DNA of 64,000 nucleotides from NCBI GenBank assembly GCA_000004695.1, contig CM000151.3, positions 7,168,001-7,232,000 on the forward strand, given 5' to 3'. The translations under genes and the position numbers were made by a program. Below are positions 19,981 to 20,684 of this stretch, piece by piece (position 1 is the first letter of the stretch; each line of letters starts with the position of its first letter). The notes beneath the pieces were generated by a model. That model was not told where the DNA came from. It saw only the letters and a list, made by a program, of their open reading frames with translations, and made no database searches. The stretch is from Dictyostelium discoideum. Taxonomy: Eukaryota.

Positions 19981-20054
19981 GCCTTAGTAGCTCAGTTGGT
20001 ACGAGCGTGAGACTGAAGATCTTAAGGTCGCTGGTTCGATCCCGGCCTGAGGCA
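19981..20054 (+). tRNA. tRNA-Phe (anticodon GAA), 74 nt, no intron, CCA not encoded.
   Basis: Cloverleaf: acceptor GCCTTAG/CTGAGGC (one G-U pair), D-arm GCTC-AGTTGGTAC-GAGC, anticodon stem TGAGA/TCTTA with loop CTGAAGA (U33, GAA at 34-36, G37 as in tRNA-Phe), and T-arm GCTGG-TTCGATC-CCGGC. The A-box (TAGCTCAGTTGG) and B-box (GGTTCGATCCC) are present. Confidence 0.9.
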
Positions 20055-20082
20055 AAATTTCCTATTATCTTTAAGCAGATCG

Positions 20083-20099
20083 CTGGTTCGAATCCAGGG
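20083..20099 (+). promoter_or_regulatory. Extra B-box (exB) downstream of the tRNA gene, GCTGGTTCGAATCCAGG, about 30 bp 3' of tRNA-Phe.
   Basis: A second perfect B-box consensus (GGTTCGAATCC) sits 41 bp after the tRNA's own B-box. This is a characteristic feature of Dictyostelium tRNA genes. Confidence 0.6.
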
Positions 20100-20684
20100 T
20101 TAGAGGCAGTGTTCCGACTGGGGAGGAGACAATTAGTCACACTTATGAATTCTCAAAAATAACAAAACAATAAACAAAATCATACCTATAATACCTTTCC
20201 ACATGAAAAAAGACCATAAAGTTAACATAGACTACATTCATTCAAAATTTGATGAATCACTTTTTGAATGGTGTTATAAATCATTGGATTATCATCAAAA
20301 GACACACTTTGAATTTGTAACAAAAAGCGATTACAGTAAACAAATTAAAAATATTAAAAATCAAAGACTACTGTATAATAAAATAAACACATGATATTTA
20401 AATCTTGTAGTAAATTTTTTTTTTTTTTTTTTTCAGATATTAATTAATTATTTGCAACTCTTTATTTTTATTAAATAATTATAATAATAATTATAGCTAT
20501 AAAAATAATTCACTGTATTTAAAAATTAAAACTCTTTATTTTACATTTTAAAAATAAAATTCATTAAAAAACTATTAATTAATGATTGTTTCTTTTAATG
20601 AATAAAAAAAAAAGAGTTCAAAGCGTTTTGAAAAAAAAAAAAAAAAAAAAAACAATTCTTATTTTTATATTTTTATTCATTCCT

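Follow-up and report, generated by a model that had tools for sequence, protein, structure and literature searches.

In Dictyostelium discoideum, a tRNA-Phe(GAA) gene of functional appearance has, with high probability, been targeted repeatedly by the organism's tRNA-gene-targeted non-LTR retrotransposons, the TRE5 elements on its upstream side and TRE3 on its downstream side. Such an arrangement is a standard, published feature of the D. discoideum genome and is already known: 61% of the tRNA genes have at least one TRE, and 13% have both TRE5 and TRE3 (PMC5006619).

The window, by which we mean the whole 64,000-nucleotide stretch of DNA that was analysed, lies on chromosome 2 of D. discoideum AX4 and has a G+C content of approximately 22%. 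The genes around the array of tRNA and TRE sequences are the following.

14465-15317, 15824-16559 and 17219-18215, minus strand: Cys-rich paralogues
21408-23733: calcineurin A gene (canA), the neighbour to the right of the tRNA/TRE array
28605-30419: DDB_G0276929, an AX4 gene matched exactly by an open reading frame of the window

The Cys-rich paralogues form a tandem of three two-exon genes (14465-18215) for small proteins with signal-peptide-like N-termini, and the TRE array begins about 500 bp upstream of the last of them (17219-18215).

Synteny with D. firmibasis extends only from window position 20749 (9397 in the D. firmibasis locus, L004) rightwards, through canA and beyond, at about 75% identity; the D. 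firmibasis canA locus is without the tRNA-Phe gene, the TRE remnants and the three Cys-rich paralogues. An empty site was not found, the second D. discoideum assembly (L005) having the same array at 99.2% identity; the protein cluster of DDB_G0276929, checked in the same search, has a single member. The TRE copies used for comparison are loci from newer D. discoideum assemblies (L001, L002, L003, L006 and L007).

The tRNA-Phe gene and its B boxes

The gene and its B boxes were assigned as follows.

19981-20054, plus strand: tRNA-Phe(GAA) gene, 74 nt including the discriminator A, with no intron and no encoded CCA
20027-20042, plus strand: internal B box GTCGCTGGTTCGATCC, matching GTCnnnnGTTCRAnYC with 0 mismatches
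20077-20108, plus strand: external (ex-B) box region, with its core GGTTCGAATCC at 20085-20095

The tRNA-Phe(GAA) gene at 19981-20054 (plus strand) is the only tRNA that ARAGORN calls in the window, and the Rfam tRNA model RF00005 matches it with 62.5 bits (gathering score 29; E 2e-12). The anticodon loop reads C-U33-GAA-G37-A, in agreement with the first-pass annotation, which had described a canonical tRNA-Phe(GAA) with U33 and G37. The primer published for the D. discoideum PheGAA family matches at 24 of 24 positions (20007-20030). A match to the permuted-tmRNA family of Rfam, at 23.3 bits against a gathering score of 47, was rejected as chance. No run of four or more T residues is present between the tRNA end and 20261 (20055-20265 scanned); among four other tRNA genes, three carry T4-T6 no further than 3 nt from the tRNA end, and the fourth has no such run within 130 nt.

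A search of the 64 kb with the B-box consensus GTCnnnnGTTCRAnYC, taken from PMC3159450, allowing at most one mismatch, returned two sites, the internal box at 20027-20042 and an external one at 20079-20094. The latter has one mismatch to the long consensus; its core, GGTTCGAATCC, matches exactly, is unique in the window and lies 30 nt past the end of the tRNA. The earlier reading of a second perfect B-box core some 30 bp downstream, in the ex-B arrangement, is thus borne out, and the same arrangement is seen in other tRNA genes: GTTCGAWTC occurs 29-32 nt past the tRNA end in all four other D. discoideum tRNA genes checked, so that five of five genes examined, tRNA-Phe included, have an ex-B box. 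In the literature, 66% of the D. discoideum tRNA genes have an external B box, some 41 bp downstream (PMC3159450). Judged by its match to GTTCRAnYC and its start about 30 nt after the tRNA end, the box at tRNA-Phe is a candidate second B box of the usual D. discoideum type. A related observation comes from comparison locus L003, where 9 kb (1031-10248) contain three tRNA-Ser(GCT) genes of one strand, each with an ex-B box; the second is followed by two ex-B copies.

The ex-B region of tRNA-Phe, AGATCGCTGGTTCGAATCCAGGGTTAGAGGCA (20077-20108), is a near copy of the gene's own T-arm and 3' acceptor strand (20025-20054), with 26 of 32 positions identical. The likeness runs for 32 nt, including the terminal GAGGCA and the positions left variable in the consensus, whereas in the four other tRNA genes it is confined to the B-box core. 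This ex-B box may therefore be a partial duplication of the 3' half of its gene. The broader proposal, in which ex-B boxes in general would start as partly duplicated 3' halves of tRNAs and then be reduced to the core bound by TFIIIC, we regard as unlikely; if true, it would explain a feature of two thirds of D. discoideum tRNA genes.

TRE5 remnants upstream of the tRNA gene

The 19001-20000 bin has a GC skew of +0.29 and an AT skew of -0.37, which agrees with the atypical G/T-rich composition already remarked on; the richness of the plus strand in G and T presumably arises because it is the antisense of A/C-rich TRE5 sense strands. Minus-strand translations of this upstream block match multicopy D. 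discoideum proteins. The first-pass annotation had placed the block at 18640-19960 and attributed it to tRNA-targeted TRE5-class insertions, possibly two, nested or truncated. The attribution is upheld; the extent is not, the TRE5 block running from 18717 to 19935, or from 18668 if a third remnant is counted. The evidence set out below supports an origin from at least two separate insertions of TRE5-class non-LTR retrotransposons, which stand in tandem and are not nested; one of the two, Element 1, is 5'-truncated. From the tRNA gene outwards, the block was divided as follows.

19948-19980, plus strand: original flank, between target-site copy 3 and the tRNA gene
19936-19947, plus strand: target-site duplication copy 3, GGAGAAATTTTA, adjoining the 5' end of Element 1
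19527-19935, minus strand: Element 1, 409 bp, a putative 5'-truncated TRE5-C-type 3' end
19935-19666, minus strand: Element 1, ORF2 tail of about 90 C-terminal codons with one frameshift, then a stop
19664-19628, minus strand: Element 1, internal A tract (A37)
19627-19536, minus strand: Element 1, C-module, with no 3' B-module
19535-19527, minus strand: Element 1, tail (A9)
19515-19526, plus strand: target-site duplication copy 2, GGATAAATTTTA, between Elements 1 and 2
18717-19507, minus strand: Element 2, 791 bp, an internally deleted TRE5-A (blastn against the full-length TRE5-A in L001)
19507-19283, minus strand: Element 2, A-module, beginning with the canonical 5' terminus AGAT.G
19281-19148, minus strand: Element 2, 134-bp piece of ORF2, corresponding to L001 4622-4781 in the N-terminal endonuclease region
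19139-18881, minus strand: Element 2, 3' part of the B-module, carrying ORF1 codons 1-67
18880-18827, minus strand: Element 2, internal A tract (A54, two interruptions)
18826-18728, minus strand: Element 2, C-module, its last 87 nt 90.9% identical to TRE5-A.1
18727-18717, minus strand: Element 2, tail (A11)
18705-18716, plus strand: target-site duplication copy 1, GGATAAATTTGA, adjoining the A11 tail of Element 2

Both remnants lie on the minus strand with their 5' ends toward the tRNA gene and their tails distal to it. Exactly three occurrences of the 12-mer GGAKAAATTTKA were counted in the window, against 0.4 expected by chance, and all three (18705, 19515 and 19936) mark element junctions. 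A 12-nt duplication present three times, at the junctions, fits two successive insertions into one target.

The matches of the block to TRE5-A modules and ORFs are long and collinear, with E values of 1e-144 and 3e-140, and those to the C-type copies have an E value of 3e-151. The window contains 17 homopolymer runs of at least 30 nt, so the two poly(T) tracts of the block (18827-18880, composed of 28 + GAA + 23 nt, and 19628-19664, of 37 nt) are not diagnostic by themselves, and it is the homology and the target-site duplications that count. One might suppose from this abundance of homopolymers that the block is ordinary AT-rich intergenic DNA with repeats arisen by chance, or, given that solo LTRs of DGLT-A also lie upstream of tRNA genes (PMC5006619), that it is a DGLT-A/H3R solo LTR. 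The collinear matches, the restriction of the target-site duplications to the junctions and a distance of 45 nt from the tRNA gene, outside the 13-33 bp window of DGLT-A, leave this supposition a negligible probability.

The poly(T) tracts had been noted before as poly(A) of the opposite strand, and they are present, although they are not tails. The full-length TRE5-A in L001, which is placed head-to-head with a tRNA-Glu gene and starts at -48, ends with the ORF2 stop, A88, a B-module that repeats the start of ORF1, A41, the C-module and A14, in agreement with the published TRE5-A structure, AB-ORF1/ORF2-BC (PMC3159450). From this 3' end, and from copies with no 3' B-module, it follows that long poly(A) tracts are internal to TRE5-A and C-type elements, standing before the C-module. 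The true tails in the block are the oligo(A) runs, A9 in Element 1 and A11 in Element 2.

Element 1 resembles TRE5-C. Over its whole length it is collinear with copies of like architecture at L003 6349-6748 (87% nucleotide identity) and L002 6399-6831 (80%). In amino acids its ORF2 tail agrees at 88% with the C-terminus of DDB_G0293280 and at 44% with the TRE5-A tail. For its C-module the identity is 75.8% to TRE5-A.1 and 81-86% to copies without a B-module. According to the literature, TRE5-B and TRE5-C have no 3' B-module, the C-module stands at the end of TRE5-A and TRE5-C and not of TRE5-B, and C-modules of A and C type share 78% identity (PMC3159450), a value to be compared with about 76% between the C-modules of Element 1 and TRE5-A. 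An ORF2 tail, A37 and a C-module with no B-module, taken together with these literature criteria, therefore identify Element 1 as a 5'-truncated TRE5-C-type element, where TRE5-C, like TRE3 below, is a label given by architecture and literature statements and not by alignment to a deposited consensus. Of TRE5-C only a partial consensus of 879 bp is known; its 18 copies lie 38-95 bp upstream of tRNA genes (PMC5006619). With TRE5-C Element 1 shares the ORF2 tail, the A tract, the C-module and the lack of a 3' B-module, as well as a tRNA-facing 5' end and a 12-nt target-site duplication; it differs in having 409 bp against 879 bp, following 5' truncation, and in its one frameshift. In L003 a C-type copy of 867 bp, against the 879 bp of the consensus, is flanked by a target-site duplication of 13 nt and begins at -45, leaving 44 nt to its tRNA-Ser gene.

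The 5' end of Element 1, at 19935, corresponds to position -46, with 45 nt to the tRNA +1 position, a placement that may be a few nucleotides off owing to similarity of target and element at the junction. The published window for TRE5 integration is 47 +/- 3 bp upstream of the tRNA gene, with a range of 34-95, and Element 1 lies within it; the first-pass annotation, which had named this distance as a check, had expected about 48 bp.

Element 2 is a TRE5-A (formerly DRE) with two internal deletions. Compared with L001, its A-module and B-module/ORF1 start are 78% identical over 623 nt, and its B-C part is 83% identical over 463 nt. An 89-codon ORF at 18823-19092 has 90% amino acid identity to the first 68 residues of P0005, a multicopy protein of 444 residues. 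Element 2 thus has in common with TRE5-A an A-module, a B-module with the ORF1 start, a C-module (91%), an A tract before the C-module, an oligo(A) tail and a target-site duplication, and it lies likewise upstream of a tRNA gene, head-to-head with it. Seven extra nucleotides (19508-19514) are found at its 5' junction; extra nucleotides in this position are a known, published feature of TRE5-A integration. It differs from the full-length element in its size, 791 bp against 5647 bp, and in lacking ORF1 past codon 67 and nearly all of ORF2. The deletion form TRE5-A.2 has the structure AB-ORF1-BC, and Element 2 differs from this as well; none of the other TRE5-A copies compared has a piece of ORF2 separating these two modules, A and B. 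A weaker candidate interpretation would place Element 2 in an undescribed family of TRE5-A derivatives of about 0.8 kb made of A-, B- and C-modules only. Element 2 is almost certainly immobile, because ORF1 is required in cis (PMC3159450).

The duplicated unit of about 85 bp reported earlier is real, comprising 18705-18866 and 19515-19664 with 78.5% identity over 163 nt, and it represents the C-modules of subfamilies A and C, not a local duplication. A long A tract precedes each C-module, an A run and then one shared 12-nt sequence come after it, and a tandem duplication of an element end together with its flank would look alike. On these grounds the block could be taken for one rearranged TRE5 whose 3' part has been duplicated locally, and such a duplication is possible for the small third copy at 18651-18699 described below. 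As an account of the whole block we consider it very improbable, for the two C-modules are 73-79% alike and each is nearer to another family (90.9% to TRE5-A.1 for Element 2; 81-86% to copies without a B-module for Element 1), the ORF2 tail of Element 1 stands at 44% to the TRE5-A tail against 88% to another family, and Element 2 opens with a canonical TRE5-A 5' terminus next to a copy of the target site. Two separate insertions remain the favoured reading. In both C-modules the terminal 54 nt form two hairpins, of which the first is weakened in Element 2, and a compensatory change, GGA/UCC to GAA/UUC, distinguishes the A and C types. The two-hairpin shape of the C-module has been described as essential for retrotransposition (PMC3159450). 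In L003, TRE5-A-like and TRE5-C-like remnants are likewise stacked upstream of the first two tRNA-Ser(GCT) genes.

Beyond Element 2, two further features were recorded.

18651-18667: fourth target-site-like copy, TGGTTTGAAAAATTTGA, preceding possible Element 3
18651-18699, minus strand: possible Element 3, T12 plus about 16-19 nt resembling the 3' end of a C-module (18668-18699)

Alignment of 18651-18699 with 18700-18743 gives 39 identities in 48 positions and a score of 49, which none of 2000 shuffles reached (18.3 +/- 3.5); Tandem Repeats Finder reported no repeat at 18620-18780. The stretch 18668-18699 is possibly a third insertion, of about 30 nt; 18651-18699 may equally be a 49-bp tandem duplication.

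The two-ORF structure, with APE, RT and zinc finger in ORF2, is absent from the TRE5 remnants, the coding sequence left in Elements 1 and 2 consisting of ORF1 codons 1-67, the 134-bp ORF2 piece and about 90 C-terminal ORF2 codons. As none of the elements at the locus has an intact reading frame, all copies are presumably dead.

TRE3 sequences downstream of the tRNA gene

The downstream side of the tRNA gene, where TRE3 debris had escaped the first-pass annotation, contains two further features.

20121-20413, plus strand: TRE3-type remnant, the C-terminal part of ORF2 with an internal deletion of about 206 bp and a truncated 3' end
20415-20484, minus strand: putative TRE3 3' end in inverted orientation, made up of some 48 nt of the 3' module and A19

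Homology of the first is firm from 20157, with weaker collinear similarity back to about 20121. At 79% nucleotide identity, 20157-20280 and 20291-20365 correspond to L007 10376-10499 and 10706-10779. The element in L007 is about 5.35 kb long, encodes RVT_1 and follows a tRNA-Glu gene of the same strand at a distance of 76 nt or less; its size, the RVT_1 domain and its position downstream of tRNA-Glu identify it as TRE3. Published integration sites of TRE3 lie about 100 bp downstream of tRNA genes, with a range of 14-305 (PMC5006619), and the start of the remnant, 66-103 nt past the tRNA end (20054), is inside this range. A 63-codon ORF at 20203-20394 matches the D. discoideum proteins P0142-P0144 (E 3.5e-8 to 7.5e-6), which are the C-terminal ends of ORF2 of the element in L006 and L007. 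P0141, a repetitive protein of 799 residues with the top score for this ORF, was rejected as it has no matched stretch, and an apparent ORF1 similarity of the downstream ORF was rejected as an artefact of a concatenated query.

With TRE3 (TRE3-A to D) the remnant shares the ORF2 C-terminus, and its strand and orientation are as in L007. It is about 79% identical to both the L006 and the L007 copies, and it measures about 260-290 bp against about 5.35 kb in L007. In the TRE3 copies L006 and L007 (L007 10836-10990), the ORF2 stop is followed by A(n), a conserved module of about 62 nt and A(n); the remnant lacks this A(n)-module-A(n) end together with the last 20 nt or so of ORF2. It has no poly(A) 3' end, stopping about 20 nt short of the ORF2 stop and being followed by T19, and the inverted TRE3 end abuts it. 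The A(n)-module-A(n) end of TRE3 parallels the A(n)-C-module-A(n) end of the TRE5-A and TRE5-C-type copies.

Because the 63-codon ORF is intact and has an ATG start, and because 20157-20413 is without a poly(A) tail, a small host gene or a non-coding RNA has to be weighed as an alternative to a TRE3 remnant. Its probability we put as extremely low. The ORF aligns to a TRE3-type ORF2 C-terminus, and the similarity reaches back past the ATG (NNKTINKIIPIIP); apart from a 206-bp deletion, the homologous nucleotide sequence runs collinearly with two TRE3 copies; a recent annotation of this locus has no gene at 20157-20413; no Rfam family matches it; and D. firmibasis has nothing at this position. 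A degraded TRE3 accounts better for these observations.

The assignment of 20415-20484 is made with moderate confidence. Its terminal 21 nt are identical to the TRE3 module at 20 positions, an A run follows directly, and it is the module's best match in the window, with a score of 46 against 24.4 +/- 4.2 for shuffled sequences (maximum 42). The segment is probably an inverted TRE3 3' end standing tail to tail with the plus-strand remnant, and it could derive either from an inversion or from an independent insertion. A continuation of the plus-strand TRE3 end past the inverted piece (20500-20660) scored marginally above shuffles and is not claimed.

Insertion history and significance

In the scheme that emerges from the literature, TFIIIC binds the B box or boxes and positions TFIIIB upstream of the tRNA gene, and the TRE5 pre-integration complex docks on TFIIIB via the ORF1 protein. 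Some 47 bp upstream, target-primed reverse transcription then inserts the element with its 5' end facing the tRNA gene, giving a short target-site duplication and often a 5' truncation. Applied to the tRNA-Phe locus, with successive insertions at one target, each newer copy would displace the older one outwards and re-duplicate the same 12 nt, leaving in order from the tRNA gene the 409-bp TRE5-C-type end, the 791-bp TRE5-A and possibly the third remnant of about 30 nt. TRE3, integrating roughly 100 bp downstream, would have left the ORF2-tail fragment, which the inverted TRE3 3' end adjoins. The site before insertion would have consisted of a single GGATAAATTTTA, then TAAATATTTCTAATTTAATTTTAAAAAATATAA, then the tRNA gene.

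The logic is shared with yeast Ty3 and Ty1, which are guided by TFIIIB and TFIIIC to insert upstream of tRNA genes, a safe haven in a compact genome. Ty3 and Ty1 are, however, LTR retrotransposons with an integrase, whereas the non-LTR elements TRE5 and TRE3 integrate by target-primed reverse transcription and at other distances.

Nothing at the tRNA-Phe locus is new in principle, and its value is that of a clean illustration. It presents the repeated use of one target site in a 12-nt duplication found three times, internal poly(A) tracts of TRE5 that can be mistaken for tails, and the A and C subfamilies together at one gene. As such, the locus is a textbook case of retrotransposons surviving in a gene-dense haploid genome beside Pol III genes.
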